From Candidatus Velamenicoccus archaeovorus (GTDB taxonomy: Bacteria; Omnitrophota; Gorgyraeia; Velamenicoccales; Velamenicoccaceae): a DNA stretch of 32,000 nt. The notes beneath the pieces are model-generated. The model worked only from the letters and a program-made list of their open reading frames with translations. It was not told the origin of the DNA and made no database searches. Both the position numbers and the translations under genes were made by a program. Positions 9,746 to 32,000 of the stretch are shown in pieces (the stretch's first letter is position 1; every line of letters begins with the position of its first letter). The stretch is from positions 1 to 32,000 of the forward strand of contig NZ_CP019384.1 of the NCBI RefSeq assembly GCF_004102945.1, in the 5' to 3' direction.

Positions 9746-9823
9746 GGCCCCATCGTCTAGCCTGGTCCAGGACGTGTGGTTCTCAGCCATAAGACACCGG
9801 TTCAAATCCGGTTGGGGCTACCA
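9746..9823 (+). tRNA. tRNA-Glu (anticodon CUC) with encoded CCA
   Basis: Hand-folded cloverleaf. Acceptor GGCCCCA/TGGGGCT. D-arm GTCT..AGGAC, typical of tRNA-Glu. Anticodon stem TGTGG/CCATA with loop TTCTCAG (anticodon CTC). T-arm ACCGG-TTCAAAT-CCGGT. Discriminator A followed by CCA. Confidence 0.85.
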
Positions 9824-12352: not shown

Positions 12353-12441
12353 TCGAGACGCAGAAATCCCCGGGACCGGAAATGCGGGCGGAGGGCTTGC
12401 TCGTGTTGACGGCCGCAGGGTTTCATGAGGAGATATTCCGC

Positions 12442-13326: not shown

Positions 13327-13332
13327 CCTTTG

Positions 13333-14925: not shown

Positions 14926-14946
14926 GGAATATATCCGAACCAAGCC

Positions 14947-17169
14947 ATGGCAGACAATACTCCTACTCCTGCTCCCGCTGCTCCTGCGCCCAACCTGGGC
15001 AACATCATCACCATCTTCAGCACCAAGGGGGGTGTCGGCAAGACGCTTTTGGCGGTCAACCTCGCGATCGCCCTCGCCCAGGAAGGCAAGCGCGTGGCCC
15101 TGTTGGATATGGACCTCCAGGCGGTCCAGGACATGGCGCGCATGATCGACGCCACCCCCCAGTATTCCATATTCGACATTGTCTCCATCCTTGAGAAGAT
15201 CGAGCAGGCGGGCAACATCAAGAATTATATGACCCTCGTCAGCTCCGCCGGCATTGATTTTCTTCCGGCCATCACCCGGCCCAAACAGTCGCCGCACATC
15301 ACCGGCGAGCGCATCGGCAAGATTGTTTCGATGCTGACGCCGTTCTATGATTTTATCATCGTGGACGGCGGCCGCGCCTTTACGGACAGCCTCATCCATA
15401 TCTTCAACCGTTCGAACCTGATCCTTTTTATCGTGACGCCGGACATCCTCTCGGTGTACGAGACGCGCTGGGGGCTGGATGTGTTGCAGTCCCTGCACTT
15501 CCCGCTCAAGATGATCAAGCTCCTTTTGAATCGTGCGGAGAGCAAGTCCGGTCTCTCATGGCAGGAAGTCAAGCTTGCGCTCCCCTGCGAGATCATCGCC
15601 AGCGTTCCGTCGGACGGACGCGTCGTCGGCCTGGCCTTGAACCGCGGCGTCCCGGTCGTCATTGACAGTCCCGCCAGCCGCGTCAGCGTCGGAATCAAAA
15701 AATTCGCCCAGGAGCTGATCGCCAACCAGTCCCTTTATATTGCTCACAAGGAGGTCCAGGACCTGCGTTCCATCAAAAAAGAAGAGGTGCCCGTCGCCGG
15801 CACCTTCTGGGATATGATGGGGCTTTCGGACAAGGTCAAGTGGGTCAAGCCCATCGAACAGGAAGACGAGATCCTCCGTCTCAAAAGACGCATCCATGCG
15901 CGCCTGATCGAAGAACTTGACTTGAAGCGCCTGGACATGGAATTGATCAATAATCCTAAGAAGGCCAAGGAGCTGAGGGAAAAAGCGGAAAAGATCATCA
16001 CCAATCTTCTGGCGGACGAGACAGGCGCTTTTCTTTCGAGCCTCGAGGTCAGGGAAAAGCTGGTCAAAGAGCTCGCCGATGAAGCCCTCGGCTTGGGGCC
16101 TCTGGAGGAACTTCTGCGGGACGGGGATATTTCCGACATCATGGTGAACAACAAGGACCAGGTGTATATCGAAAAACACGGGCGTGTCGAGTTGACGAGC
16201 AAGAAGTTTATTTCCGACGACCAGGTGAAGGTCGTCATCGAGCGCATCATCGCGCCCCTGGGCCGGCGCATCGACGAATCCGTGCCTATGGTGGATGCGC
16301 GTCTTCCCGACGGCTCGCGTGTCAACGCGATCATCCCGCCGTTGTCTTTGACGGGTCCGACCCTGACGATCAGAAAGTTCGCGCGCGAACATTTCACGAT
16401 CGAAGATCTCATCGCGCGTTTCGGGAGCCTGGACCGCGACATCGCGGATTTCCTGGCTGCCTGTGTTCTTTCCAGAAAGAACATCATCGTTTCGGGCGGA
16501 ACAGGTTCCGGGAAAACGACATTTCTCAACATCCTCTCCGATTTTATTCCCTCGAACGAGCGCATCGTCACTATCGAAGACGCAGCGGAATTGAAGCTGA
16601 ACCAGGAGCATTGGGTGCGCCTGGAATCCAGGCCTCCCAACATCGAAGGCAAGGGCGCTATCTCGATCCGCGACCTTTTCCGTAACTGCCTGCGTATGCG
16701 GCCCGACCGGATCGTCATCGGCGAGTGCCGCGGCGGCGAGGCGCTAGACATGCTCCAGGCCATGAATACGGGCCATGACGGTTCCTTGACGACCATCCAC
16801 GCCAATTCCACCCGCGATGTGCTGACCCGTCTGGATTCCATGATCCTGATGAGCGGCGTGGAGCTTCCCATCCGCGCCATCCGCGAGATGACGGCCTCCG
16901 CCATCGATATCGTCATCCAGACAGCCAGGTTGTCCGACGGGACCAGAAAGATCACGCAGGTGACGGAGGTTGCCGGCATGGACGATGAGCTCCATATCAG
17001 GTTTGCCGACATTTTCCAGTTCAAACAGTTGTCGATCGACCGGGACACGGGAAAGGTCATCGGCGAATTCACGGCCACGGGGAACCTCCCCAGTTTTTAC
17101 GAAGAGCTCATCACCCGCGGCATCCATCTCTCCTCAGATATCTTCCAGGTGAAGAATATTCAGAAATGA
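14947..17169 (+). CDS. cpaF: Fused CpaE/TadZ-like ParA/MinD ATPase and CpaF/TadA secretion ATPase
   Basis: 740 aa in one frame. The N-terminal ~270 aa carry the deviant Walker A IFSTKGGVGKTLLAVNLA of MinD/ParA/CpaE. The C-terminal ~450 aa carry LGPLEELLRDGDISDIMVN, Walker A VSGGTGSGKTTFLN, IVTIEDAAEL and RPDRIVIGECRGGEA, as in CpaF/TadA (T2SSE family). Confidence 0.9.
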   Translation: MADNTPTPAPAAPAPNLGNIITIFSTKGGVGKTLLAVNLAIALAQEGKRVALLDMDLQAVQDMARMIDATPQYSIFDIVSILEKIEQAGNIKNYMTLVSSAGIDFLPAITRPKQSPHITGERIGKIVSMLTPFYDFIIVDGGRAFTDSLIHIFNRSNLILFIVTPDILSVYETRWGLDVLQSLHFPLKMIKLLLNRAESKSGLSWQEVKLALPCEIIASVPSDGRVVGLALNRGVPVVIDSPASRVSVGIKKFAQELIANQSLYIAHKEVQDLRSIKKEEVPVAGTFWDMMGLSDKVKWVKPIEQEDEILRLKRRIHARLIEELDLKRLDMELINNPKKAKELREKAEKIITNLLADETGAFLSSLEVREKLVKELADEALGLGPLEELLRDGDISDIMVNNKDQVYIEKHGRVELTSKKFISDDQVKVVIERIIAPLGRRIDESVPMVDARLPDGSRVNAIIPPLSLTGPTLTIRKFAREHFTIEDLIARFGSLDRDIADFLAACVLSRKNIIVSGGTGSGKTTFLNILSDFIPSNERIVTIEDAAELKLNQEHWVRLESRPPNIEGKGAISIRDLFRNCLRMRPDRIVIGECRGGEALDMLQAMNTGHDGSLTTIHANSTRDVLTRLDSMILMSGVELPIRAIREMTASAIDIVIQTARLSDGTRKITQVTEVAGMDDELHIRFADIFQFKQLSIDRDTGKVIGEFTATGNLPSFYEELITRGIHLSSDIFQVKNIQK

Positions 17170-17495
17170 AGCTTGGGAGATCCGCCGTCAAACCTTGCGC
17201 GTCGCGGTCTCTTGAAGCGCCCCCAGAATCCGTTGTTTATCCCGGCTCGTTCCTGCCTTCCGAGCGAGAAAACTCCCCCTCTCGCGTCTTTCCATGCAGC
17301 CCCTGTCTTTCTATTTGTTGCGCCTCCGTGTCCGGGGTATCTTTCCGGACATAGCCGCCCCGTGGCGACCAATCCGCAGAGAAGGGTTGACGGGGATGGC
17401 AAAAGATCTCTGTCTGCGCAACATTTTCTTACCTCCTTTTGTTTGAACAAGTCCTCGCGCCAGCCGCTTGTTTTCCAGTAGATACCAATAACGGC

Positions 17496-17525
17496 TTGCC
17501 TGACCAAGTCGTCATTTGATATAAT
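17496..17525 (+). promoter_or_regulatory. Candidate sigma70-type promoter with extended -10 inside the non-coding spacer
   Basis: TTGCCT (17496-17501), an 18-nt spacer, then TG-a-TATAAT (TG 17517-17518, TATAAT 17520-17525). Confidence 0.4.
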
Positions 17526-17740
17526 GCTGCGAGCTTCTGTCCGGATGAGGCCAGGATTTTTCTTGGTCGGTTTGGATATCAAAAAGACCAAAAACTCTCA
17601 GGTTCTGCTGGAATGAGCGCCGGGTTTGGCAGATGGTCGCCACAACCCGGCCAAGCCAGGTTTTCAAGGAGGCAGGGCCGGTTGTACCAAAAATGGGCCT
17701 GGTGTTAAGGAGTCACCCCGCCAGAGGCACTCGTGGAGCC

Positions 17741-18166
17741 CCACGGCTTTACAGCCGTGGCCCCTTTTCCTGCCGGGCTTCCGCCGTGGGGCGGAATCCC
17801 GCCCGAATGCCATTCATCCTCACCTTGACAGGTGGGGCATTCTGGGTGCGGGGTAAAATTAACCTGGCCTGCCCAAGGCAGGCCGAGCAAGCTGCCGCAG
17901 AAAGCGGCACACCGCCACAGAAGGTGGCGCACTTGCCGTCCGAATGAGGCAAGGTGCGGCCCATCTGCCTCAGAAAGGTGGCATACCCGCCATTCCGGTT
18001 TGGCGGGGTGCGATGAGGCCGGGTGATCGGAGCCATCCCGCCAGAGGCGGAAAGCCACTAAAAACAGACTCCTTGCTTAAACGCTTGTTAATTTTACTCG
18101 TATACGCCAGAGGCACTCGTAAAATTAATGTCGCAAGCTTCGGAGTCATCCCGCCAGAGGCGGGAT
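17741..18166. repeat. Dense array of at least nine short GC-rich hairpins (candidate structured RNA or REP-like array)
   Basis: Perfect stems: 17741-17760 (8 bp), 17779-17796 (7 bp), 17866-17884 (8 bp), 17893-17909 (6 bp, loop AGAAA), 17913-17929 (6 bp, loop AGAAG), 17932-17953 (6 bp), 17986-18007 (7 bp), 18038-18050 (5 bp, loop AGA) and 18148-18166 (8 bp, loop AGA). No convincing ORF on either strand. Confidence 0.75.
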
Positions 18167-18178
18167 GAGGAGGGACAA

Positions 18179-18544
18179 ATGGCCGCAGAGGCCTTGTACA
18201 AGGCAATCGTTCAAGAATCCGGGAAGATGCTGGCAGACAAGATTACTATCGCCGATTCATTTGGCGCCAGGGCCAAAGGGCTTCTTGGAAAAATTGGGCT
18301 GGAGGATGGTCGGGGCCTTCTGATCAGGCCGTGTAGCTCTATACACATGTTTTTCATGAAATTCCCAATAGATGTCCTATTTCTGGCAAAAGATGGTAGA
18401 ATTATCAAGATAGTTAAAGGATTGAAGCCGTGGAGACTAAGCGGATGTTGGTTTGGGTGTCATATGGTTTTAGAGCTTAAAGAAGGAGTTTTAGATATTA
18501 ACGAAGATTTTGATAAAAAACACATAAAATTCGTCAAAATATAA
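18179..18544 (+). CDS. DUF192 (COG1430-like) domain protein
   Basis: ORF 18128-18544. I prefer the ATG at 18179 (GAGGAGGG at 18167-18174). The pattern ADSFGARAKGLLG...GLLIRPCSSIHMFFMKFPIDVLFLAKDGRIIKI...MVLELKEG matches DUF192. Confidence 0.72.
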   Translation: MAAEALYKAIVQESGKMLADKITIADSFGARAKGLLGKIGLEDGRGLLIRPCSSIHMFFMKFPIDVLFLAKDGRIIKIVKGLKPWRLSGCWFGCHMVLELKEGVLDINEDFDKKHIKFVKI

Positions 18545-18605
18545 TGTCCAATATATAAAATCATTTTCTATAACACAATGCAAAACATTAAATAACAGAA
18601 AATAA

Positions 18606-20177
18606 ATGTCCAAATTAGCTAAATTCAACCAAAATATCAAACGATTTATATTGGAGACTCGAAAGAGAAACTCTGATTATGGAGTTCGAAAGCTCGCTGA
18701 TCTTGCTTTTGGAAAGTTTGGAGTGAAAATCAGCAAATCAACTGTTAATAATATTGTCAAAAATGCCAAATTGAGCAAGCCGGTCGGCCGCAGTATATTG
18801 AAAACTTATAGATACTCCGGGGATTTGTACGGCGCAGGGTATGTTTTTTTTGTAGGCGCCATGCGTCTTTTGGGCATAGGGGACAAAGTTGCGGCCATTA
18901 CGTCGGAAATGGGGCTCTGTAAAGAGATCAGGCCGGAAACAATCCCGTCTCTTGTCGAAGGCTGGCTTCTGTCCAAGGCGGTTTATAATGTGCCTCTTGA
19001 AAAAATTGCAGGGTATTCAAAAAAAGAGCTATGGGATATCATAGGCTACAAAATTTCAAAGGCAAATTTTGAGACTTTTCTTGCCCATTTTGAATTCTCG
19101 CAAGATATTGGAAATAAATTAGTTATGTATTTTTTAAATTCCATAAAGGACGTCAGTTTTATTAAATTTACCCTTTCGGATGGAGGCGTTTTTCATGTTG
19201 ACGCAAAAGGTTGCTATGTCTGGACCGCCAAAAAGACCCCAGTTAATTTTTCTTCAAATCTTTTATTTTTAGATAGTTATATAAATTCTTTCGTGGAAGG
19301 AAATGAACCCTTCTTTGTCCTAAACGCTAATCCGGAGGGTAGTACTCAAGCTAAAGAGCTCCAGGATTTTATTCTGGCCATGGAAGGTTCTGTTGCTGAA
19401 AAGAGGATCCGCAGAATTGATCTTTTTGGTCCCGATGGACGGCCTTGCCGTGAAATTTCGTTCGTCCTGCCCCTCCGCAGAAGGTTTGTGATTGGTGCTT
19501 CTCCGGCTTCAGATACGGAGAAAATAACGGCCCCCGCCCCTAAAAGTTTCGAGTCCAATTTTATCTGTGAGCCTTTGGGCAAGCTGTTTTTTGTCTCAGA
19601 GGAAAGTCATAAAGTATCACAACATATTGGAAATAAAGATGTTATGATAAGAAAAATCCATCTTAAATCGTCAGATCCTTCTTTGAGGATTTCGCTTTTG
19701 ACGAATCTTGATCCCAAGGATTGGACCGCGGTTGAAATAGCCGAGGGTTATCTGCGGAGATTCGGAAATTTCCAAGAATACTTATTGCGGGCTTCTGAGT
19801 GGGCAAAAAATCCTGGGTATGCAGATGAATTTGTGTCTGCCGATCGCTTTTTGGCGCATTCTTTGAGGCTGAAAGAGTCGAAAGATGCCGAGCATTTATT
19901 CGCCTGTCTCGTCGAGGTTTGCGATCTTTTCGCTAAAATGAGCTTCCTGCCCCCTTTGTGCAGACAGTGGAGTTTGTTGAAAACCAGGGAGTTGATTTAT
20001 AAGCAACCCGGTGCTGTGCAGAGGGACACGGCCTGCGATGTTTTATTTAACATATTGAAAACAAAAGAGTTAGAGAAAATACGTGTTTTAGAGCACGCTT
20101 CGCTCATATTTAACAGCCTCCCTGTGAATGAACGATCCGGCCGCAAGTTGTGGATTTTTCTGACAGCCGCAGTTTGA
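18606..20177 (+). CDS. Hypothetical 523-aa protein with N-terminal HTH; possibly transposase-derived
   Basis: Long uninterrupted ORF in a low-GC segment. The N-terminus RKRNSDYGVRKLADLAFGKFGVKISKSTVNNIVKNAKL looks like a transposase-type HTH. The C-terminal WTAVEIAEGYLRRFGNFQEYLL resembles the Y-x2-R-x3-E region of IS4-like DDE transposases, but the E is out of register. No terminal inverted repeats seen. Confidence 0.6.
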   Translation: MSKLAKFNQNIKRFILETRKRNSDYGVRKLADLAFGKFGVKISKSTVNNIVKNAKLSKPVGRSILKTYRYSGDLYGAGYVFFVGAMRLLGIGDKVAAITSEMGLCKEIRPETIPSLVEGWLLSKAVYNVPLEKIAGYSKKELWDIIGYKISKANFETFLAHFEFSQDIGNKLVMYFLNSIKDVSFIKFTLSDGGVFHVDAKGCYVWTAKKTPVNFSSNLLFLDSYINSFVEGNEPFFVLNANPEGSTQAKELQDFILAMEGSVAEKRIRRIDLFGPDGRPCREISFVLPLRRRFVIGASPASDTEKITAPAPKSFESNFICEPLGKLFFVSEESHKVSQHIGNKDVMIRKIHLKSSDPSLRISLLTNLDPKDWTAVEIAEGYLRRFGNFQEYLLRASEWAKNPGYADEFVSADRFLAHSLRLKESKDAEHLFACLVEVCDLFAKMSFLPPLCRQWSLLKTRELIYKQPGAVQRDTACDVLFNILKTKELEKIRVLEHASLIFNSLPVNERSGRKLWIFLTAAV

Positions 20178-20281
20178 ATCCCCTGGAAGTCCCCAGAAAT
20201 TCTCACAGAACTTTTTATGTTACCCCATGTAAAAAACCCAGTTACGTAAGAAAACGCTTTCTTTTTTGGGGTAAAAATTTG

Positions 20282-20311
20282 TTGACATCATTATAATATA
20301 TATGATATAGT
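20282..20311 (+). promoter_or_regulatory. Candidate sigma70-type promoter for the flp gene array
   Basis: TTGACA (20282-20287), an 18-nt spacer, then TG-a-TATAGT (TATAGT 20306-20311), in a very AT-rich stretch ~190 nt upstream of the first flp start. Confidence 0.5.
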
Positions 20312-20429
20312 TTTGGTGCAAGATCGGTATCGAATCGACCACGGAAAAAAGATGAAAAACGCCACGGAAACAAAAAACATTTTTGGGATTTTTTGTCCCT
20401 ATTGGGTCGTTCGGCAGATTTTTCCGGCA

Positions 20430-20489
20430 GCCGAATCGTTCAATGCTGATTTTTTGAAAGAAAAGCATGAGCGATTCGGCAATTTTTTT
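20430..20489 (+). terminator. Leader stem-loop plus T7 tract upstream of flp1 (candidate attenuator)
   Basis: GCCGAATCG (20430-20438) pairs perfectly with CGATTCGGC (20472-20480), with an inner ATGCT/AGCAT stem. It is followed by aaTTTTTTTc (T-run 20483-20489). An upstream TTCGGC (20410-20415) could alternatively pair with GCCGAA (20430-20435). Confidence 0.45.
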
Positions 20490-20501
20490 CTAGGGTTCGT
20501 A

Positions 20502-20750
20502 ATGAGTTTAAAAAAGTTCTTAAAAAGATCCGTTTGGACAATAAGCGGCCAGTCGATCATTGAATATTTCGTCCTGCTGGTTGCGATAGCCGCGTTGACG
20601 ATTGTGGGGAGCTCGGCTTTTTATGCCAAGATGCAGCGCTCATCGGGGTACGTGTTGAATTATTCCGTAGGCCAGATGAAGCAGAGCAATCTCAACACCT
20701 TTTCACTGGGGGGAGTGACTCCCGGCGGATGGACAAACACAACGATTTGA
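20502..20750 (+). CDS. flp: Flp/Fap-type prepilin-like protein, paralog 1
   Basis: 82 aa from the ATG at 20502. Basic leader MSLKKFLKRSVWTIS, then G-QSII-EY and the hydrophobic helix FVLLVAIAALTIVG (the G/x4-EY Flp motif). Confidence 0.8.
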   Translation: MSLKKFLKRSVWTISGQSIIEYFVLLVAIAALTIVGSSAFYAKMQRSSGYVLNYSVGQMKQSNLNTFSLGGVTPGGWTNTTI

Positions 20751-20760
20751 GGGGCGGGAC

Positions 20761-20913
20761 ATGCGTAAACATTGCGGACAATCTGTTCTGGAATATGCCA
20801 TCCTCATCTCGGTGATCTGTGCCGTTTTTGCGACGATGTTTGTTTATACCAAAAATGCGGTCCGCGCCAGATTGTTGATCACCCAGGACCGCCTGAACGA
20901 GGCGGATAAATAG
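20761..20913 (+). CDS. flp: Flp/Fap-type prepilin-like protein, paralog 2
   Basis: 50-aa ORF, too short for the supplied track, translated by hand: MRKHCGQSVLEYAILISVICAVFATMFVYTKNAVRARLLITQDRLNEADK. GAGGGG RBS 6 nt upstream. Carries the Flp motif G-QSVL-EY. Confidence 0.75.
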   Translation: MRKHCGQSVLEYAILISVICAVFATMFVYTKNAVRARLLITQDRLNEADK

Positions 20914-20915
20914 CC

Positions 20916-20932
20916 TGCCGCCTGCGGCGGCA
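20916..20932 (+). terminator. Short GC hairpin after flp2
   Basis: TGCCGCC-tgc-GGCGGCA (7-bp stem), followed by aaggggTTTcc. The U-tract is weak. Confidence 0.3.
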
Positions 20933-20943
20933 AGGGGTTTCCA

Positions 20944-21150
20944 ATGGCCCGTTTATTGAGAGAAGTTTGGAGAGGGAACAAGGCGCAAAGCCTCCTGGAG
21001 TATTCTATCCTGATCGCCGTTGTCGCTGCGGCCTTTGTGACCATGGCCATGTATGTCCGTCAGGCGGTGCAGGGCAAGATCTATCGCATGGAGGACTCTG
21101 TGACGGCAAAATCGAATAAGGGGGCCACGACCTGGAGCGTCCCCGTGTAA
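20944..21150 (+). CDS. flp: Flp/Fap-type prepilin-like protein, paralog 3
   Basis: 68 aa. Leader MARLLREVWRGNK, then A-QSLL-EY and SILIAVVAAAFVTMAMYVRQAVQGK. Ala replaces the usual Gly at the predicted cleavage site. Confidence 0.75.
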   Translation: MARLLREVWRGNKAQSLLEYSILIAVVAAAFVTMAMYVRQAVQGKIYRMEDSVTAKSNKGATTWSVPV

Positions 21151-21166
21151 GGATGATGAGGAGAGG

Positions 21167-21370
21167 ATGATCATGGAGACACGCAGTTGCAAACGACAGA
21201 AAGAACAGGGGCAGATGACCATCGAATACGCCGTGATGTTCGTGGCCATCGTCGCGGTCATCATTTATGCAGCGACGAATTTTATCCAGCCGTCGATGAA
21301 CAGGTTTTTTAACAGCACGTCGCTCATCATCAATAAATCGGTCGAGGAGATCGAGAATAGATTCAGTTGA
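21167..21370 (+). CDS. flp: Flp/Fap-type prepilin-like protein, paralog 4
   Basis: 67 aa. An alternative ATG at 21173 has better spacing from GAGGAG at 21158-21163. Motif KEQG-QMTI-EY followed by AVMFVAIVAVIIYAATNFIQP. Confidence 0.78.
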   Translation: MIMETRSCKRQKEQGQMTIEYAVMFVAIVAVIIYAATNFIQPSMNRFFNSTSLIINKSVEEIENRFS

Positions 21371-21463
21371 TCCCCGTGTCAACAGGGGGTCTCGCCCCGC
21401 AGGGTGGACCAGAGAGGGCCCGCGGGGATCGAAATCCGAAGGAAGGAAGGGGGTGAAAGAGAC

Positions 21464-21715
21464 ATGAGGAAGGTGTTGAGCAAAGTAGGCCAGAGCACGT
21501 TGGAATATGTTATCGTCTTGACAGCGATCGTGGCAGCGATTCTTTTTGCGGCGACACAGTTCATCAAGCCGGGCGTCAACCGTATCTATGACGAGACGGG
21601 CACGAAGTTGAACGATACAGCCAGTGTCTTCGCCAATAAGATCGGGATCAGCCTGAACGCCGTGGGCGGAACGACGGGCGGCACGACGGGCGGCACGACA
21701 GGGGTCGGCGTATAA
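21464..21715 (+). CDS. flp: Flp/Fap-type prepilin-like protein, paralog 5, with (GGTT)3 C-terminal tail
   Basis: 83 aa from the ATG at 21464 (GGAAGGGGGTG upstream). MRKVLSKVG-QSTL-EY followed by VIVLTAIVAAILFAATQFIKP. C-terminus GGTTGGTTGGTTGVGV. Confidence 0.8.
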   Translation: MRKVLSKVGQSTLEYVIVLTAIVAAILFAATQFIKPGVNRIYDETGTKLNDTASVFANKIGISLNAVGGTTGGTTGGTTGVGV

Positions 21716-21757
21716 TCGCGGTCCAACAGATCGCCGCGTTGAAGGAGGTGAAAAAGG

Positions 21758-22114
21758 ATGTTCAGATGGTTGAATTCGAAGAGGGGTCAGAATACGGCTG
21801 AGTACGCGATCCTCATCGGCGTTATCGTGGCGGCTGCTATCGCGATGCAGATCTATATCCGCCGCGGGATGCAGGCCAGGATCAAGGACGCTGTTGATTT
21901 CACGCAAACAGCGGACGACGATGCCGGCAACGGGTTCTTCAGCAACATGACGCAGTACGAACCGTATTATTATCAGACGAACTTTGAGACGAGCCAGAGC
22001 GGAACGCAGTCAGAAGAGCTGCAGTCCGGCGGCGGCGTCATCAGGACGTCTATCACGGACACAACGCAAAGAACCGGGAACCAGACCTATGGCAACTACA
22101 TGGAAGCCAATTAG
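21758..22114 (+). CDS. Long Flp-like prepilin/minor-pilin-like protein, paralog 6
   Basis: 118 aa. AAGGAGGTG RBS. MFRWLNSKRG-QNTA-EY followed by AILIGVIVAAAIAMQIYIRRGMQARIKD, then a polar ~75-aa tail. Confidence 0.8.
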   Translation: MFRWLNSKRGQNTAEYAILIGVIVAAAIAMQIYIRRGMQARIKDAVDFTQTADDDAGNGFFSNMTQYEPYYYQTNFETSQSGTQSEELQSGGGVIRTSITDTTQRTGNQTYGNYMEAN

Positions 22115-22153
22115 GGGTTTCATGTTTTGCGCGCGAAAAGGAGGTGACGTTAC

Positions 22154-22471
22154 ATGCGCAGGTGGTTGAAAGAAAATGGTCAAAGCACCCTCGAGTACGC
22201 GGTTTTAATAGTGGTCATAATTGCCGCCCTTATCGCGATGCAGGTGTACCTGAAGCGCGGTATCCAGGGCAGGATGAGAGAGTCAACTGACCAGATCGGC
22301 GAGCAGTTTTCGCCGGGTTACACCGTTTCAAACAGAACCACCCAGACATACTCCAACAGCCGAGAAGAGAACACCGGTTGGTCGACATCGACGGAAATCT
22401 ACAACCAGTGGCAGAACAGAGCGGGCTGGGAGAATGTGATGAACGCCGAACAGGAATACTGGGGCGTGTAG
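22154..22471 (+). CDS. Long Flp-like prepilin/minor-pilin-like protein, paralog 7
   Basis: 105 aa. AAAGGAGGTG RBS. MRRWLKENG-QSTL-EY followed by AVLIVVIIAALIAMQVYLKRGIQGRMRE. Confidence 0.82.
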   Translation: MRRWLKENGQSTLEYAVLIVVIIAALIAMQVYLKRGIQGRMRESTDQIGEQFSPGYTVSNRTTQTYSNSREENTGWSTSTEIYNQWQNRAGWENVMNAEQEYWGV

Positions 22472-22490
22472 AGAGGATCGGCGGGCATGG

Positions 22491-22518
22491 CCCGTTAGAG
22501 AGATCATTCTCTAACGGG
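22491..22518 (+). terminator. Perfect 11-bp stem-loop between flp7 and flp8
   Basis: CCCGTTAGAGA (22491-22501), loop gatcat, TCTCTAACGGG (22508-22518), followed by cTTTg. Begins 20 nt after the flp7 stop. Confidence 0.5.
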
Positions 22519-22544
22519 CTTTGCCCCGCGAAAGGCAGGATGCG

Positions 22545-22934
22545 ATGGGCGCGAAAAGATCGAACACAACAGCGGGTTTGACGGGCGGGCAAAGGTCTTG
22601 CGCTTTTCCGGCGCTGTCGCGCAGGGGCCAGCAGATTGCAGAGTATGCCCTGGTCATGGCGGCGCTCGCCTCGGCGCTGTTGATGATGTATGTCTATACC
22701 AAGCGTGGGATCCAGTCGACCATCAAGGACCTGACGGACCATGAGATCGGCTGGCAGAACGACAGCGTGCCGATCCTGGCCGCCGGCGTTCATCAGAATA
22801 CGACAGCGGCGATGACGACGAAGGCGCAGGATGCGGTGCGCGTCAGGAAAGACTCCGGGCTCGGGGCCCAGTATGATTTTGCGAGCGCTTCGAGATCGAC
22901 CGGGGAAAGCAACGTGACGTTCAACGAGCTTTAG
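22545..22934 (+). CDS. Long Flp-like prepilin/minor-pilin-like protein, paralog 8
   Basis: ORF opens at TTG 22521; the ATG at 22545 is more plausible. The long leader ends in SRRG-QQIA-EY, followed by ALVMAALASALLMMYVYTKRGIQSTIKD. Confidence 0.75.
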   Translation: MGAKRSNTTAGLTGGQRSCAFPALSRRGQQIAEYALVMAALASALLMMYVYTKRGIQSTIKDLTDHEIGWQNDSVPILAAGVHQNTTAAMTTKAQDAVRVRKDSGLGAQYDFASASRSTGESNVTFNEL

Positions 22935-22936
22935 GG

Positions 22937-23338
22937 ATGGCTGCGATGAGAGACAGACGGCATTTTATTTTATGTTTTTCCGGAGATCCGCTGGGCGCCC
23001 GGCGCGGCCAGACCGTTATCGAGACGGCTGTTTTGGTGACCATCATCATTTTTGCTTTTATCGCGATGCAGGTGTACCTGAAGCGCGGGATCCAGGGCCG
23101 CCTGAGAGGGACGATTGACGGCATCGGCGAACAATATGATCCCGACCAGACGACGTCGGATTACAACCTGGTCCACGAGAGCGACGTGACGACGACCAGC
23201 GAGTCCAGCGAAGAGATGTATGTCGATCCGATGTCGTATTCGGGCCAGTACCAGAACAGGCTCATCACGATGGTGCACGTCGAGACGCACTACGATAATT
23301 CGTTCAAGAACGGCTTTGAATATGTGGGGGCGCCGTAA
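22937..23338 (+). CDS. Long Flp-like prepilin/minor-pilin-like protein, paralog 9 (E-T variant)
   Basis: 133 aa. ARRG-QTVI-ET followed by AVLVTIIIFAFIAMQVYLKRGIQGRLRG. Thr replaces the Tyr of the EY pair. Shares a 38/39-nt tract with paralog 7. Confidence 0.75.
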   Translation: MAAMRDRRHFILCFSGDPLGARRGQTVIETAVLVTIIIFAFIAMQVYLKRGIQGRLRGTIDGIGEQYDPDQTTSDYNLVHESDVTTTSESSEEMYVDPMSYSGQYQNRLITMVHVETHYDNSFKNGFEYVGAP

Positions 23339-23384
23339 TAAAGATAGCGTCGAAGAGTCAAAGTATCAGAGTGTCAAAGATGAG

Positions 23385-24566
23385 ATGGCAGAGGGCAGAA
23401 AACTGAAGGCAGCCATGAAGAGCATGCGGGCATCGGAAAATCGGGGGATCGGGATTTGGGGATCGGGGAACCGGGAATCCGGGCGAAGATCTTGCCGGAC
23501 CCCTCATGCTTTCAAGAAGGGGCAGGCCCTTCTGGAACTCGCGGTCTTCAGCACGATCTTTTTGACGATCCTGACGGCGATCGTGGCCTATGGCCTGCGT
23601 TACAGCTATAACCAGAGGGCGCAGATGCTGGCGTTCCGCCGTGCCATGAAGATCGCCTCGGACAGGAATTACGGCTCAGGCAGTTATATGCTGATCCAGG
23701 ACCGTCATATCCCGGATCCGGCGGAGACCTTTGGCATCGGTTCGACTGCGCCGTTCGTCGGCGTCGCGTCCGTGACCAGGGATCCTGAGATGGATGCACA
23801 GGCTGCGGATGCCTCGTCTTTGCCGGCGACGGTGATCGACATGGAGACGACGGGCGTGGACGGCGCCATGGAGCCTTTGGCCCGCATCGTCGCCAAAAAT
23901 GCCGGCTTCAGGCGCGAGACAGGCGTTTCCGAGGAGATGCTGAAAAAATACGAGCTGATATACAGCGATGTCGTGGATGAAGAGGGCGGCAACGTCCGCA
24001 TCATCGATTCGTGCGTCGGCGAAATGATCAATTTCGATTCCTGTTATTCGCAGGCCGTCAAGATCGTGGACGTGGACACCTGTTACAACTATTGCCTGAT
24101 CACCGTGACACAGGATGAAGACACGAATTGCTCGACGATTTGCAATCAGGCCATGAATCCGCCCAATCAGAACAATACGAGCTATAACTCTGCGGTGGGC
24201 GGGGCGTGGTATGCGGCGAACTGGCGCGTTGAGGACGGCAAGTATGTCTTCCCCGTCTTGAATGAGATCAGTTCGCGCGTCAGCGAACATGCCAAATCTA
24301 TGGGCATACAGCAGGATACCGTGACGCACAGCAAGCGTTCCACGAAGATCCGTAAGATCGAGACGACGTCGAACCTTGTGACCGATGAAAACGCGACGTG
24401 GGAGGATAACAACGTCAGGCAGTTTGTAACGATGAATGCGTTGCAGCCGAACGGCTACCAGGTGACGCATGACAATCCGATGGATTACGCGGACGACGTC
24501 GATAGCCAGGAGATCAACAGCCGCTCCACGGGTACGATCCGCCAGACGATGACGACGCCGAAATGA
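23385..24566 (+). CDS. Large TadE-like pseudopilin-like protein with Cys-rich C-terminal region
   Basis: ORF 23220-24566. The start is uncertain (ATG at 23385, 23415 or 23424). TadE-type N-terminus KKGQALLELAVFSTIFLTILTAIVAYGLRY. The ~330-aa extracellular part contains DSCVGEMINFDSCYSQAVKIVDVDTCYNYCLITVTQDEDTNCSTIC. Confidence 0.7.
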   Translation: MAEGRKLKAAMKSMRASENRGIGIWGSGNRESGRRSCRTPHAFKKGQALLELAVFSTIFLTILTAIVAYGLRYSYNQRAQMLAFRRAMKIASDRNYGSGSYMLIQDRHIPDPAETFGIGSTAPFVGVASVTRDPEMDAQAADASSLPATVIDMETTGVDGAMEPLARIVAKNAGFRRETGVSEEMLKKYELIYSDVVDEEGGNVRIIDSCVGEMINFDSCYSQAVKIVDVDTCYNYCLITVTQDEDTNCSTICNQAMNPPNQNNTSYNSAVGGAWYAANWRVEDGKYVFPVLNEISSRVSEHAKSMGIQQDTVTHSKRSTKIRKIETTSNLVTDENATWEDNNVRQFVTMNALQPNGYQVTHDNPMDYADDVDSQEINSRSTGTIRQTMTTPK

Positions 24567-24572
24567 GCGCAG

Positions 24573-24899
24573 ATGACGCAGATAACAGAGAACACAGAAG
24601 AGAAAACAGTCATGAGGAAAATGTGGAGATCAGGGGGCTGGAGGATGAGCGAAGCAGGGCAGTCGACGCTGGAGATGACGGCGGCGCTGGTCGTTCTGAT
24701 GATCCTGCTTGTGGGCGCCGCGAGGATATTTGTGTGGCTCAACGAACGCATGGCCTGGAGGCAAACGGAATACGAAAATACACGCGTGACTGCTGGGAGC
24801 ACCGCGTTTACCAGTTATGTGGATCTAAACAATGCGGAACACACAAGGGGGGTTGAGATCAATGAGTCGTCTAATCCGCCGCTTAACATCTTTAAATAA
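24573..24899 (+). CDS. Small TadE/TadF-like pseudopilin-like protein
   Basis: ORF 24573-24899, with alternative starts at 24612 and 24645. N-terminal EAGQSTLEMTAALVVLMILLVGAARIFVWL matches the TadE-like pattern. Confidence 0.65.
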   Translation: MTQITENTEEKTVMRKMWRSGGWRMSEAGQSTLEMTAALVVLMILLVGAARIFVWLNERMAWRQTEYENTRVTAGSTAFTSYVDLNNAEHTRGVEINESSNPPLNIFK

Positions 24900-27087
24900 C
24901 CTGGCGCCTCTGGGGAACAAACGGGGGCAGATCGCCACCTTGTTGATCCTGGCGACTGTGGTTCTGCTCATGTTTGCCATGGTGACGCTGAATCTCGGGA
25001 ACGTGGCCATTAATTCCACGGGCGTCTCAAACGCCGCTGATTCGGGCGGCCTCTATCTGGCGTCCCAGCTGGCCACGAAGTCGCGTCAGCTTTATGAATC
25101 TCTCGGAAATACGACGGAAAAATGCCAGAAGACCGGCTGGGCGAGTTTCGTTCTGGCGATCGTTATCGCCATTATCGCCATCGTCGCGGTTGTGATCACG
25201 TGCGGCGCGGCTGCCCCGGGTCTTACCGGCCTTGCAGCGGTTGCCTCGCAGGTGGCAAGTGTCGGCACGACGACGTTGGTGGCCGCAGGAGCCATCGGCG
25301 GCGCTGTCGGGGGCGCCATTGGAGGCGCCATTGCCGGAACAGGAGTTTTGCAGGGGGCGTTGACAGGCGCGGCTGTGGGCGCGGCCCTCGGGTTTGCCGC
25401 GGCCGGCGCCGCAGGGGCTTTAGGCGGGGCAACATCGAGTTCGGGCCTTGGCGCGACGGCTACTAGCGGAAGCGTTGCAGGAGAGGGCGGTGCTGTGATG
25501 ACAGGCCAGGGTATTGCGACAGCGTCCGGGACCATGGCTTTTGAAGCAGGGGCGGCCCTGCCGGCAGGTTCTCAGCTTTTGGCCGGCTCCATTCTTATTC
25601 CTTCTACCGCCGGCCTGGGCACTTTGGCCTTGGGCGCGCTTTCCCTTGCCGCAGCCGGATATAACCAATCGGTACAACAGAGCATGCCGGGGGCCGTGGC
25701 TGAACAATTCACGAAAATGCTCAACAAGATGTCCGAGCCGAACAGGATCCGCGAGTCTGTCTTTATGCAGGCCCTCGAGCTGGTTGTGGACGACCCGACC
25801 AAGTCTTATGATTCGCCGGATTCCAACCTGAACGGCGACACGCTGGAATACGTGCCTGATTTCCAGATATGGCTTTTCAACAGATTCAGGATCATCAACA
25901 GCGTGACCGATTTGATCGATCCGGAACCCGTTGTTTACGATTTCCTTAATAACTATGCCTGGCAGTTCGAAAATGTCTGCAAGCTGGCCAACGAAGGCGG
26001 AATTTATTGGCAGTATGTGACGGGCACGGTCTACGCCGAGGATGTGCCGGGTCCCCTGGAACGCGCGGATTACAAATGGGTCTTGACCCCAGATCCGACG
26101 CCGGAAGACCCGGGCAACATGAAATATGTCGCCGCGGCGGGCCGCGACGGGCATGTGGTCGAGCTCTTGCGCGCCTTGCGCAATGCCGGCTACAGCGTAC
26201 CCTTCTGGAATCCGGGTCCCGACCCCGCGGCCATGAATGAATGGGGCAATCAGTGCAACGGCGACGTCTGCATCGACCCGCCGATCTCCCTGGGATATGA
26301 CGAACTCGACGACATGGCCGATAACCTGATGGAGATGGGCGATTTCATCGGGGCCCTGAGGTCGATGCCGCAGAACGATACGATCGAAGCCTGGAGGGGA
26401 TGGGCCTTTTTCTTCTATGACGAATATGATACCACTAATCCGGCGACATATCTGATGAGAAGTGCGAAATATGAAGAGGAATTGGGGCAATGGATCACGG
26501 CGATCGAGAGCATCAGGACGACCCTGCCGGCCTGCCTTTTCGGAGGTCCGTCGGGAGATACGGTCCTGAATCCTCCCTGTCAGTTCGGCGCCGGCGGCAG
26601 CGTCGATAGCGACATCGATGACGAATTCTATAATGCTTTTTATGACCTGGGCGGCATGCAGTATGAGATGAACTCGTTCCACGGCGCCATCCAGGGATTT
26701 TTCAGCGCCCTCTTCCCTGATGTCGAAGAGGAAGCGTATGACCAGACCTGTGTTCCTCCGGACGAGCTGAATCCCGCGGGAAAACCCTGCGGCGGCAAAA
26801 ATCCGGTGCGGTATGAATGGAAGGATTCGCGCGGCGACCACGAGGTAACGGTCAAGGCGGTGTTCAATGTGCCGCGACTCAGGACTTACAAGACAGGCAA
26901 CTGGTTCAGCGGCAAGGTCTGCGTGCAGCTGCTTTACGGCGCCGAGAATACGCAGGTGATCGTATCGCGCTGGGACAGCTCGAAAGGCATGGGGGCGCTC
27001 GGGACATGGAACCCGTTCGGCGGCCGCGTGACAAAGGCCGCGCGCGCTTATTATAGCTACAACAAAGAAGTGAGATTGGTGAATTAA
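24862..27087 (+). CDS. TadG-like (Tad_N) pilus-associated protein with a long Gly/Ala-rich tract
   Basis: ORF 24832-27087. I prefer the ATG at 24862 (AAGGGGGG at 24845-24852). KRGQIATLLILATVVLLMFAMVTLNLGNVAINSTGVSNAADSGGLYLASQL fits the TadG N-terminal domain. It is followed by a ~180-aa G/A/S/T-rich region and a ~470-aa acidic, aromatic-rich C-terminal domain. Confidence 0.8.
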   Translation: MSRLIRRLTSLNNLAPLGNKRGQIATLLILATVVLLMFAMVTLNLGNVAINSTGVSNAADSGGLYLASQLATKSRQLYESLGNTTEKCQKTGWASFVLAIVIAIIAIVAVVITCGAAAPGLTGLAAVASQVASVGTTTLVAAGAIGGAVGGAIGGAIAGTGVLQGALTGAAVGAALGFAAAGAAGALGGATSSSGLGATATSGSVAGEGGAVMTGQGIATASGTMAFEAGAALPAGSQLLAGSILIPSTAGLGTLALGALSLAAAGYNQSVQQSMPGAVAEQFTKMLNKMSEPNRIRESVFMQALELVVDDPTKSYDSPDSNLNGDTLEYVPDFQIWLFNRFRIINSVTDLIDPEPVVYDFLNNYAWQFENVCKLANEGGIYWQYVTGTVYAEDVPGPLERADYKWVLTPDPTPEDPGNMKYVAAAGRDGHVVELLRALRNAGYSVPFWNPGPDPAAMNEWGNQCNGDVCIDPPISLGYDELDDMADNLMEMGDFIGALRSMPQNDTIEAWRGWAFFFYDEYDTTNPATYLMRSAKYEEELGQWITAIESIRTTLPACLFGGPSGDTVLNPPCQFGAGGSVDSDIDDEFYNAFYDLGGMQYEMNSFHGAIQGFFSALFPDVEEEAYDQTCVPPDELNPAGKPCGGKNPVRYEWKDSRGDHEVTVKAVFNVPRLRTYKTGNWFSGKVCVQLLYGAENTQVIVSRWDSSKGMGALGTWNPFGGRVTKAARAYYSYNKEVRLVN

Positions 27088-27107
27088 TCCAACACGAGGT
27101 GCTGTTT

Positions 27108-27596
27108 ATGATAAGGACTGCGGCGAAGCTAATGATAATGGGGGTGGCGGCCATCCTGGTGCTGACCGGATGCGCCAGGCAGGATGATGTGACTTTTGCG
27201 CGCCAGGTCGTCACGGACATGACGAGAGGGCGTTATGCCGTGCGCAAGCTGATCGATTGGCCGAACTTTGTGGCTTTTGAAAAAAGCGTCGGCAGTGAAT
27301 ACAATGCGCTGCCGAATGCCGAAGAGAAACAGAACTATGAACGGTCGTTCATCGACAGCTTCAAAAAGGGGTTCCGGGAGCAGAAGGGGAGCATGAAGGC
27401 GTTCACCGGCTGGAGGCTGTTCAGCCGCAAAGACCCGGACCTCAGGATCGTGGCTGCAGACCTGGCCGGCGGCAAAATCATCTTTTTTGTTGCCGTCAAG
27501 TCCGAACGGGGCAAGCGCAAGATCGTAGAATTGAAACTGATGCAAGTGCTGGATGCGGAGAAGTTCAAGGCCTATGAAGAGGAGATGAAGAAATGA
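27108..27596 (+). CDS. Lipoprotein of unknown function
   Basis: ORF 27099-27596. I prefer the ATG at 27108 (GAGG 8 nt upstream). Signal plus lipobox MIRTAAKLMIMGVAAILVLTGC. Its stop overlaps the next start (ATGA). Confidence 0.7.
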   Translation: MIRTAAKLMIMGVAAILVLTGCARQDDVTFARQVVTDMTRGRYAVRKLIDWPNFVAFEKSVGSEYNALPNAEEKQNYERSFIDSFKKGFREQKGSMKAFTGWRLFSRKDPDLRIVAADLAGGKIIFFVAVKSERGKRKIVELKLMQVLDAEKFKAYEEEMKK

Positions 27597-27817
27597 GCGG
27601 GGTCTTCGCGATTTTTAACGACAGAAGGAACAGGGCCGGGATGGGGATCCTGGAGTACGCCCTGTTGATCTCGGCCCTGCTGGCCGCCCTTTTGTCGTTG
27701 CAGGTGTATCTGAGGCGGGCGATCTCGTATAAATGGCGCGATGCGGCGGATTCTCTCGGGTTGGGCCGTCAGTATGAAACGGACGGCAGCAAGGCCACAG
27801 CCGTTGTGAGGTATTAA
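27593..27817 (+). CDS. flp: Flp/Fap-type prepilin-like protein, paralog 10
   Basis: 74 aa. Leader MSGVFAIFNDRRNRA, then G-MGIL-EY and ALLISALLAALLSLQVYLRRAISYK. Confidence 0.75.
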   Translation: MSGVFAIFNDRRNRAGMGILEYALLISALLAALLSLQVYLRRAISYKWRDAADSLGLGRQYETDGSKATAVVRY

Positions 27818-27819
27818 TT

Positions 27820-28671: not shown

Positions 28672-28679
28672 AGGTCGCC

Positions 28680-29582: not shown

Positions 29583-29822
29583 TATGTTGAACCGCCATGA
29601 GATCCTGAAGACCGGTTGGCAGGCGCTGAGAAACGGAAGGCTCGGCATCGCCGACTTTTGCCTTGTGGTCCTTGGGATCGAGGCGGGATTAAAAAAATTG
29701 ATTGAACCGTGTTCTGTGGCGGGACACGATTCGATACCGAGCCGGATCCGCACGGCAGATACACGCGGAAATCTTCGAGGAAAGGAGGACGTAGGTTTAG
29801 GCGACCTAAAAACCGAACGTAA

Positions 29823-32000
<2,178 letters not shown>

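Follow-up and report, generated by a model that had tools for sequence, protein, structure and literature searches.

Ten pilin-precursor genes in the published Tad locus of Candidatus Velamenicoccus archaeovorus and the Omnitrophota pilin family to which they appear to belong

Tad/Flp systems, such as Aggregatibacter tad and the Caulobacter Cpa system with its pilin PilA, combine CpaB/RcpC, a CpaC/RcpA-type secretin, TadZ/CpaE, the ATPase TadA/CpaF and the proteins TadB and TadC. Their prepilins carry a G/xxxxEY-type site (the slash marks cleavage) followed by a short hydrophobic helix, and larger TadE/F/G proteins accompany them. In Myxococcus xanthus, the Tad-like predation pilus Kil serves killing on contact. 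It has a single major pilin and 14 minor ones, some of them short Flp-type "adapter" pilins and others grouped in TadEFG-like tip complexes (PMC8460266, PMC12075869). Several separate clusters hold the Kil pilin genes, and KilP, the major pilin, has been described as a fully helical, bona fide Flp. Archaeal class III signal peptide pilins (PF04021; UPF0333/DUF361; Epd pili) have the signal [KR]-G/Q-x-x-x-E, and Gln is also found at +1 in Methanococcus Epd pilins. Finally, the pseudopilins GspG-K of type II secretion are several different pilin-like subunits with a fixed gene order, a secretin and a large tip-type subunit lacking Glu5.

The window analysed here is the whole stretch of 32,000 nucleotides CP019384.1:1-32000 of Ca. 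Velamenicoccus archaeovorus LiM. This organism is an archaea-preying ultramicrobacterium living as a predatory epibiont. Although a preliminary description assumed an unknown system, positions 12382-29832 have been reported as a "complete Tad complex" expressed in co-culture, and the RcpA of Velamenicoccia groups with those of the predatory Stigmatella, Vulgatibacter and Lysobacter (Seymour 2023). The "many small class III signal peptide genes" of the Tad locus are also in print (Seymour 2023; West-Roberts 2023 preprint), and databases already name the genes of the pilin array as Flp-family or class III signal peptide proteins. Novelty is therefore confined to the pilin family itself. Ten small ORFs (p1-p10) are real, transcribed pilin-precursor genes within this published Tad (tight-adherence) pilus locus. 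They look like members of a large, unnamed and undescribed pilin family of Omnitrophota that is set apart by long tails and by a conserved motif in the helix.

Machine genes and the ten pilin genes

A Tad (type IVc) machine is present, with CpaB, a TadA-family ATPase and TadZ, TadB/TadC and a CpaC-type secretin (Table 1). CpaB matches the equivalog TIGR03177 (pilus_cpaB) at 155.2 bits for a cut-off of 71, and the secretin, of the CpaC/RcpA type, has Secretin and T2SS-T3SS_pil_N domains. The top NCBIfam match of the ATPase is the TadA family (329.5 bits, below the equivalog cut-off of 373); Pfam T2SSE scores 211.9 bits, and the protein also carries a fused CbiA/ParA domain at its N-terminus. 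This fusion of TadZ to TadA and the TonB_C domain of the secretin distinguish the locus from known Tad/Flp systems, as do the ten pilin paralogs in a single array. A further difference concerns the prepilin peptidase (TadV/CpaA, Peptidase_A24), for which no Pfam match was obtained among the window ORFs scanned, while a crude motif scan for GxGDxK ORFs came up empty both for the window and for 80 related loci. Prepilin cleavage is thus presumed here.

Table 1 Features of the window. TPM and riBAQ values (ppm, three figures) are from Lonsing 2025 Table S2.
Feature	Coordinates	Strand	TPM	riBAQ (ppm)	Remarks
CpaB/RcpC	12382-13326	+			Pfam and NCBIfam profiles
Secretin with TonB_C end	13330-14925	+			Pfam and NCBIfam profiles
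Fused TadZ-TadA ATPase	14947-17169	+			Pfam and NCBIfam profiles
Sigma-70-like promoter	20282..20311	+			TTGACA-18-TG-TATAGT, 11/12; consensus match only; upstream of array
p1	20502..20750	+	236		Short pilin, 82 aa; dN/dS 0.10
p2	20761..20913	+	105		50-aa pilin; motif group; dN/dS 0.12
p3	20944..21150	+	229		68-aa pilin; motif group; Ala at -1; dN/dS 0.13
p4	21167..21370	+	54		65/67-aa short Flp-like pilin; FIQP..NR group
p5	21464..21715	+	554		83-aa short Flp-like pilin; GGTT-repeat tail
p6	21758..22114	+	637	1906/469/1641	118-aa long pilin; motif group; dN/dS 0.06; top level among pilins in proteome
p7	22154..22471	+	1484		105-aa long pilin; motif group; highest mRNA; dN/dS 0.07
p8	22545..22934	+	595	53/15/64	Long pilin, about 104-129 aa
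p9	22937..23338	+	216		130/133-aa long pilin; p7 paralog; Thr at +6
414-aa protein	23322..24566	+	378		KKGQALLELAVF; signal-bearing; TadE/F-like minor pilin candidate
95-aa protein	24612..24899	+	309		EAGQSTLEMTAAL; signal-bearing; minor pilin candidate
741-aa protein	24862..27087	+		1698/582/1675	KRGQIATLLILATV; pilin-like N-terminus without Glu5; TadG-like tip candidate
162-aa lipoprotein	27108..27596	+		3085/959/3401	LTGC lipobox; most abundant product of the locus
p10	27593..27817	+	243	55/14/53	74-aa pilin; motif group; AGMGILEY
TadB-like platform protein	27820-28671	+	200		T2SSF domain
TadC-like platform protein	28680-29582	+	338		T2SSF domain (ORF 28623-29582)
Giant gene, start	29826..32000	+	169	21.6/1.5/1.3	Open to window end; 725 codons without stop

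All ten pilin ORFs of the preliminary description, with the motifs quoted for them, were recovered at their positions on the + strand. Each encodes a basic leader, a [KR]-[GA]/Q-x-x-x-E-Y signal with variants and a hydrophobic helix. Hence, a G/xxxxEY motif with a helix of about 20 residues is found in 10/10, the variants being Ala at -1 in p3, Thr at +6 in p9 and Met at +1 in p10. A signal detector ([GAS][QMATSLFIV]xxxE, then 16 hydrophobic residues) gave 13 matches in the window, compared with 0.065 +/- 0.25 (maximum 1) across 200 shuffles used as a control. All but one of the 13 fall within 20502-27817 on the + strand. Over 84 loci, 681 matches were obtained on the + strand and 9 on the - strand.

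The ten genes are all transcribed, at 54-1484 TPM compared with about 20-40 for most genes (Lonsing 2025 Table S2). The promoter listed in Table 1 coincides with a rise from about 20-27 TPM in the upstream genes to the level of p1. In the metaproteome, p6, p8 and p10 were detected, and p1-p5, p7 and p9 gave no protein (Lonsing 2025 Table S2). Purifying selection acts on all ten (dN/dS 0.06-0.55), p8 evolving fastest, and the gene order of the array is syntenic across 80 Omnitrophota loci. The p6-p7 pair occurs, adjacent, in 74/80 of these loci, and 60 adjacent p5-p6 pairs in the same order were counted across loci. Identity to UBA6210 reaches 97% for p6 and p7 and 56-88% for the other paralogs. 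Upstream of p6 lies a perfect ribosome-binding site, AAGGAGGTG. As to gene models, p1 starts at 20352 in GenBank (QAT16247.1, 132 aa) and encodes 82 aa in RefSeq; 20502 is the most likely start. The RefSeq entry WP_164908782.1 covers p2, and UniProt names p3 "Flp family type IVb pilin". The start of p8 is uncertain, 22545 being the annotated one.

Sub-families, helix motif and signal residues of the pilins

The sub-families proposed initially are borne out by alignment and hhalign. Paralogs p2, p3, p6, p7, p8, p9 and p10 cluster together (p6-p7, E 2e-31 over 96 columns; p7-p9, E 2.4e-35; p2-p3, E 1.4e-20; p7-p10, E 1.7e-25). Similarly, p4 and p5 group at E 4.6e-27 and contain the AAT[NQ]FI[QK]P..NR motif described for them; p1 is nearest to these two. 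The juxtamembrane motif of the larger group is also real: it is conserved in 119/120 p7 homologues and 119/119 p6 homologues. As claimed, classical Flp pilins lack such a motif, which none of 120 PF04964 members carries. In AF2 models, it falls within the C-terminal half of the first helix.

Residues around the processing site further separate the family from classical Flp pilins. Gln occupies +1 in 611/642 members, whereas Ala is found there in 116/120 classical Flp pilins. Ala at -1, also unlike classical Flp, occurs in about a third of the members (206/642), and Thr at +6 recurs in 7/33 p9 orthologues; both had been called non-canonical and are normal for the lineage. In their mature form, p6-p9 have about 96-110 aa compared with a median of 44 aa for classical Flp. 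Mature p1 and p5 have about 66-74 aa and p10 has 58 aa; p2, p3 and p4 are within the short Flp range (about 40-55 aa), and p10 nearly so.

The term "Flp-like" can be kept in part. The proteins are type-IV-pilin-like and belong to a Tad (type IVc) machine, but the expected Flp_Fap (PF04964) assignment failed, with 0/10 reaching the gathering score of 32.2 bits. The best paralog was p4 (18.0 bits), p7 scored 13.4 bits, six paralogs had no match, and the best of 10 orthologues reached 20.7 bits. No paralog attained the cut-off of a curated pilin family, and Gsp families gave no matches for the pilins. The signal is like that of archaeal class III pilins, and many orthologues are named "UPF0333 family" by JGI. 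Among ten orthologues of the short paralogs, taken from other Omnitrophota, three score above the PF04021 cut-off of 23.7 bits (30.4, 25.7 and 24.6 bits), but the window paralogs themselves stay below it (15.9-17.7 bits). Unlike the archaeal pilins, they go with a secretin-containing Tad machine of a diderm bacterium.

Homologues are numerous, with 1005 for p6 and 4237 cluster representatives for p7 at E<=1e-3. The AF2 model of p6 has a helix at residues 2-55 and a tail of poor confidence. For p7, a helix (10-45) and a beta-hairpin (58-94) are predicted at moderate confidence (pLDDT 71). A structural search of the PDB found no match. Unlike KilP, the p6/p7 family is not a member of Flp, and its tail is predicted to be a beta-hairpin or disordered.

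Candidate minor pilins and the giant gene

All ten genes of the preliminary description are real, but it overlooked three more that follow the array, two of them bearing the signal and one TadG-like. The 414-aa gene is kept after the array (52 detector matches across loci), and its pairing with the 95-aa gene is conserved 35 times. From its N-terminal pattern, we infer that the 741-aa protein is TadG-like. As in Tad/Flp systems, larger proteins lie downstream. Their TadE/F/G likeness, read from N-terminal pattern and gene position, makes them candidates: TadE, TadF and Tad_N models gave no Pfam/NCBIfam match at E<=0.01 for ORFs 23220-24566, 24573-24899 and 24832-27087. The giant gene is reported to encode 39,678 aa (West-Roberts 2023 preprint); 17,312 aa are present on a truncated MAG contig.

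A probable multi-pilin filament and alternative readings

In the best overall explanation, to which we give a probability of about 0.7, the ten ORFs are genuine prepilin genes, transcribed together, that serve a filament machine of the Tad/Cpa type (type IVc). Most likely, this machine builds a multi-pilin, Tad/Kil-like prey-contact filament with p6 and p7 as core subunits. A prepilin peptidase of the A24 family, with its gene beyond the window, would cut after Gly or Ala and leave Gln at +1, and the hydrophobic segment of about 22 residues would lie packed at the centre of the filament. In p7, the "juxtamembrane motif" reads Y+23-x-K-R-G-x-Q-G-R; it would mark the point where the same helix enters its amphipathic second half, probably serving as a subunit-subunit or subunit-machine contact, with its conserved Gly as a possible hinge. 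Roles would be divided among the paralogs. We take p6 and p7 as the main fibre subunits, their polar or beta-hairpin tails pointing outward, because they are adjacent in most loci, are the most conserved, and rank top in protein (p6) or mRNA (p7). For p7 this is uncertain, since its protein was not detected despite the highest mRNA and about four usable tryptic peptides estimated by in-silico digestion. The short pilins (p1-p5, p10) may be low-copy adapter or minor pilins, and the 414-aa, 95-aa and Glu5-less 741-aa proteins may form a TadE/F/G-like priming and tip complex. Like the Kil pilus, the fibre would mediate contact of a predator with its prey, possibly together with the giant protein encoded downstream; Kil pilins and p1-p10 are likened by description, not by sequence relatedness, and here the genes form one tandem array.

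A more far-reaching combination of ideas is quite unlikely to hold as a whole. In it, p6/p7-type proteins would form a structural class of their own among type IV filament subunits, intermediate between the class III signal peptide pilins of archaea and the Flp pilins of bacteria. The class would be marked by Gln+1, a Y-x-K-R-G-x-Q hinge or contact motif in the helix and a tail that is either polar or a beta-hairpin. As constant neighbours, p6 and p7 would polymerise together into a fibre of two kinds of subunit, in which Glu5 of an adjacent subunit would be neutralised by the invariant Lys-Arg pair rather than by a free N-terminal amine. With this fibre and the giant protein encoded beside it, ultra-small Omnitrophota predators would breach archaeal and bacterial envelopes.

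The machine could instead be primarily a piston like that of type II secretion, a short periplasmic pseudopilus of many pilin-like proteins pushing the 39,678-aa protein or its pieces through the secretin, with no external adhesive pilus. A link to export of the neighbouring large protein has been proposed (West-Roberts 2023 preprint), and the same flanks surround 13/14 giant genes (2026 preprint). The giant ORF also begins 244 nt past the end of tadC (29582 to 29826) and has a similar transcript level. Several distinct pilin-like proteins in fixed order are reminiscent of GspG-K, and the large Glu5-less 741-aa subunit recalls GspK. However, the ATPase, CpaB, paired TadB/C and CpaC-type secretin are of the Tad, not the Gsp, type, and the suggested export draws on the literature proposal and on gene position. 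Moreover, p6 reaches a riBAQ of 1906 ppm and the platform proteins only 4-14 ppm, a wide gap that fits a polymer better than a stub. We consider a pseudopilus of this kind unlikely; secretion and pilus functions can both hold.

Very unlikely, in our view, is that the paralogs are interchangeable major pilins, used one or a few at once for antigenic or prey-range variation. Tails vary among the tandem paralogs, p8 evolves fast (dN/dS 0.55), p6-p7 is duplicated in 6/80 loci, and the tip sets of Myxococcus are partly redundant. On the other hand, a dedicated orthologue of every paralog is found in distant genomes with the order unchanged, which argues that the set is old and its members are not redundant. 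In a single culture all ten are transcribed side by side, and dN/dS is low for most. That the smallest ORFs (p1-p4) are untranslated remnants or chance ORFs would agree with their absence from the metaproteome, shared with p5, p7 and p9, with the lack of a GenBank annotation for p2 and with the weak ribosome-binding sites of p1-p3. This is extremely unlikely given their dN/dS of 0.10-0.20, their ordered orthologues across loci and their transcripts (54-236 TPM). Furthermore, mature products of 40-60 aa, mostly hydrophobic helix, would yield few detectable tryptic peptides.

The pilin gene array

The preliminary description placed ten Flp-like prepilin genes in the window, nine in tandem (p1 to p9) and one further downstream (p10). 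All ten + strand ORFs are present; in each, a basic leader precedes a [GA]-[QM]-x-x-x-E-[YT] site and a ~20-residue hydrophobic helix. A detector for this signature gave 13 matches in the window, compared with 0.065 +/- 0.25 in shuffles (n=200), and 12 of the 13 fall between 20502 and 27817 on the + strand. Three larger genes follow p9 and have pilin-like N-termini; they are listed with the rest of the locus in the table. Look-ups by exact sequence returned GenBank QAT16247-QAT16259, all on one Ca. V. archaeovorus contig of 1,974,201 bp.

Features of the Tad locus and its surroundings (rows from the SurA-like PPIase to the giant ORF are in gene order)
Feature	Positions	Strand	Remarks
tRNA-Glu(CTC)	9746-9823		
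HTH_17 protein	10168-10437		
Fic/DOC protein	10437-10859		
SurA-like PPIase			
CpaB/RcpC	from 12382		TIGR03177, 155 bits vs cut-off 71
Secretin	13330-14925		CpaC-type N-terminal region, TonB_C end
Fused TadZ-TadA ATPase	14947-17169		740 aa
ORF-poor stretch	17170-18127		~950 bp
DUF192 protein			
523-aa protein	18606-20177		no assigned function
sigma-70-like site	20282-20311		directly upstream of p1
p1 to p9	20502-23338	+	tandem pilin genes; p5 at 21464-21715
414-aa protein	23322-24566	+	signature detector; N-terminal sequence KKGQALLELAVF; absent from preliminary description
95-aa protein	24612-24899	+	signature detector; N-terminal sequence EAGQSTLEMTAAL; absent from preliminary description
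741-aa protein	24862-27087	+	N-terminus resembles detector-positive genes, without the conserved Glu5
Lipoprotein	27108-27596		162 aa; LTGC lipobox; last 4 nt overlap p10 start
p10	27593-27817	+	tenth pilin gene
TadB, TadC, 88-aa ORF			
Giant "archaeovorin" ORF	29826-32000		GTG start, 244 nt past tadC end; open at window end

Gene calls in the region 20352-23338 differ between annotations. GenBank and RefSeq, respectively, give 132 and 82 aa for p1, 67 and 65 aa for p4, and 133 and 130 aa for p9, while p2 is in RefSeq only and missing from the GenBank record. The JGI name of p6 orthologues, "gas vesicle protein", was rejected as unsupported by Pfam. The C-terminus of p5 is a GGTT-type repeat, GGTTGGTTGGTTG. 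In its orthologues (loci L005-L021), the tails are rich in Gly/Thr/Ala and differ in length, pointing to a surface tail that is variable or carries glycans.

Sub-families, helix motif and relation to known pilins

Profile-profile comparison agrees with the proposed sub-families. The paralogs p2, p3, p6, p7, p8, p9 and p10 form the motif-bearing group (p6-p7, E 2e-31 over 96 columns; p7-p9, E 2e-35; p7-p10, E 2e-25; p3-p7, E 1.5e-21). A second group contains p4 and p5 (E 5e-27); p1 is closest to this pair.

The motif that follows the hydrophobic segment is conserved throughout the Omnitrophota, with the consensus AMQvY.KRG.QGrL...D.iG.Q in p7-type and AMQtYv.Rg.QARikda in p6-type proteins. A loose form occurs in 119 of 120 p7 homologues, in all 119 p6 homologues and in 100 of 145 distant p7-type representatives. 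As had been proposed, the motif is not general in known Flp proteins: it was found in 0/120 classical PF04964-positive Flp pilins. This control set is mostly from Alphaproteobacteria and Pasteurellaceae, so that the absence holds for these lineages, not for every Flp lineage; it was collected with five Flp seeds, one of which is 100% identical to Caulobacter PilA. AlphaFold2 places the motif within one continuous helix, both in p7 (residues 10-45; pLDDT 65 at residues 31-40) and in p6 (residues 2-55; pLDDT 89 at residues 31-40). Hence, what was called a juxtamembrane motif is predicted to lie where the second, amphipathic half of the first pilin helix begins. In the p7 model, a beta-hairpin (58-94) is predicted with moderate confidence; in p6 the helix alone is reliable and the tail is not confidently folded.

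Assignment to a Tad-type machine is supported; membership of Flp_Fap is not, all ten proteins remaining below its cut-off (best 18.0 vs 32.2 bits). None of the ten reaches the cut-off of an NCBIfam pilin model either. With Class_IIIsignal (PF04021), built on archaeal pilins, the window paralogs score 15.9-17.7 bits against a cut-off of 23.7, which is passed by 3 of 10 tested p4/p5-type orthologues from other Omnitrophota. Among 642 family members, the first residue after the predicted cleavage site is Gln in 611, the residue before it (-1) is Gly in 431 and Ala in 206, and position -2 is Lys or Arg in 440. These counts overturn the view that Ala at -1 in p3 and Thr at +6 in p9 are non-canonical: both are normal features of the lineage. 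Classical Flp pilins of the control set, unlike these proteins, have Ala at +1 (116 of 120); their median mature length is 44 aa.

The p7-type family comprises 4,237 representatives at 50% identity (E<=1e-3) and is without a Pfam model; no precomputed Pfam domain was found in the 120 listed p7 homologues. With a curated model, many metagenomes from groundwater and sediment would be better annotated. Searches of the PDB returned nothing under E 0.77 with the p7 profile and nothing under E 0.7 with its model in Foldseek. Stems of beta-barrel pore toxins were among the top Foldseek matches owing to the long hairpin of the model; being at chance level, they gave no reason to read p7 as a toxin, and this candidate was rejected.

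Conservation, selection and expression

Three independent lines, namely conservation, selection and expression, establish the ten ORFs as real genes, a point on which the preliminary description had depended. Scanning one genome per species yielded 185 p7 relatives. The best 80 loci, essentially all from Omnitrophota MAGs, were analysed; with four loci from a first look-up added, the detector gave 681 matches on the p7 strand versus 9 on the opposite one, with 3-13 matches per locus. Close relatives keep the order p1 to p9, 414-aa, 95-aa, p10. The phylum-wide core runs from a small pilin gene through p4/p5-like, p6, p7 and p7/p9-like genes to the 414-aa and 95-aa genes, and an adjacent p6-p7 pair is present in 74 of the best 80 loci. 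At least two such pairs occur in one array in 6 of the 80 (L026, L028, L032, L050, L072 and others). A few loci with full arrays are titled Deltaproteobacteria, Candidatus Saccharibacteria or Phycisphaerae (L019, L045, L060) and many more bear the title "uncultured Planctomycetia"; such labels probably stem from errors of naming or binning, not from a real presence beyond Omnitrophota.

Relative to the UBA6210 genome, dN/dS is 0.06-0.26 in nine paralogs and 0.55 in p8. The p6 and p7 proteins are 97% identical between the two genomes despite synonymous divergence (dS 0.26-0.33). Expression values were taken from Table S2 of Lonsing et al. 2025, with genes matched by accession. All ten paralogs are transcribed at 54-1484 TPM, most listed genes of the genome being at ~20-40 TPM. 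Transcript levels rise ~10-fold at p1, and a near-consensus sigma-70-like site (pattern match only) lies immediately before this gene. In the proteome (riBAQ), p6 reaches 1906 ppm, p8 53 ppm, p10 55 ppm and the 741-aa protein 1698 ppm. Despite having the highest mRNA level (1484 TPM), p7 is missing from the proteome; sheared fibres may have been lost, or the protein may be heavily modified.

The most abundant product of the locus is the 162-aa lipoprotein (3085 ppm). It has no family match and may be a pilotin or a TadD-like partner of the secretin.

A candidate multi-pilin Tad filament and its neighbours

The Tad locus of Ca. V. archaeovorus is no discovery. Seymour et al. 2023 published "CP019384.1, locus 12382-29832" as its complete Tad complex, starting exactly where the CpaB gene starts, and several of the ten proteins are already named Flp-family or class III signal peptide in databases. 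Multi-pilin Tad pili are likewise known in predators (PMC8460266, PMC12075869). In the searchable literature, we found no description of how orthologous sub-families keep their order, of the helix motif, of a signal with Gln at +1 and Ala at -1, or of the long-tailed p6/p7 pair.

Because the machine parts are Tad-type, a Tad filament of several different pilins is the best-supported reading. The Myxococcus Kil pilus offers a model, in which one major pilin is joined by 14 minor ones, by short "adapters" of the Flp kind and by tips resembling TadEFG (PMC8460266, PMC12075869). By analogy, p6 and p7 would be the main subunits, the short paralogs could act as adapters or minor pilins, and the 414-aa, 95-aa and 741-aa proteins may form a priming and tip complex. 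Prepilin cleavage is a step that we infer, as neither the window nor the related loci yielded a prepilin peptidase gene (crude motif scan; Pfam on the larger ORFs); this absence is weak negative evidence. The main alternative is that the system chiefly exports the giant protein encoded directly downstream of the Tad locus, as West-Roberts et al. propose on the basis of conserved adjacency. Such an export role is compatible with a filament. The literature gives the giant protein 39,678 aa; on a MAG contig that is truncated, the call has 17,312 aa. Its first 724 residues match Peptidase_C39 (25.8 bits vs cut-off 22), and it is more abundant in the 10kS than in the 100S cell fraction (riBAQ 21.6 vs 1.3 ppm).

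Ca. V. archaeovorus is among the very few cultured (enrichment) Omnitrophota and a contact killer of Methanothrix; the Tad locus and the archaeovorin gene together are the main candidates for its attack apparatus. With each of the 13 pilin-like proteins assigned to fibre or tip, the list of genes would become a set of parts open to testing: antibody or label targets, models for cryo-ET fitting and filament models.

The window opens at dnaA and covers the first 32 kb of the closed genome. In the Tad locus, TadZ (CbiA/ParA-type) and TadA (T2SSE) form a single protein, with tblastn matches in 56 of the best 80 related loci; in the six nearest relatives the match extends over roughly 716-724 of the protein's 740 residues. 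At its C-terminus the secretin has a TonB_C domain (60.8 bits), a fusion that is unusual among secretins of CpaC/RcpA type. The 523-aa ORF lies in a low-GC stretch (0.41-0.43), with weak expression (20.5 TPM) and no family match except a weak HTH match. We rejected an insertion element and regard this ORF as a component of the locus, since it has tblastn matches in 54 of the best 80 loci, which in the three nearest relatives are full-length and sit just ahead of the pilin genes; its product is possibly a regulator. Between tadZA and the DUF192 gene, a stretch without convincing ORF or Rfam match is 294 bp longer than in the same-species MAG GCA_041890195.1. After the tRNA-Glu gene, the sole Rfam match in the whole window, comes an island of low GC (0.36) with the HTH_17 and Fic/DOC genes; the island resembles a small module of toxin-antitoxin type that has integrated here.
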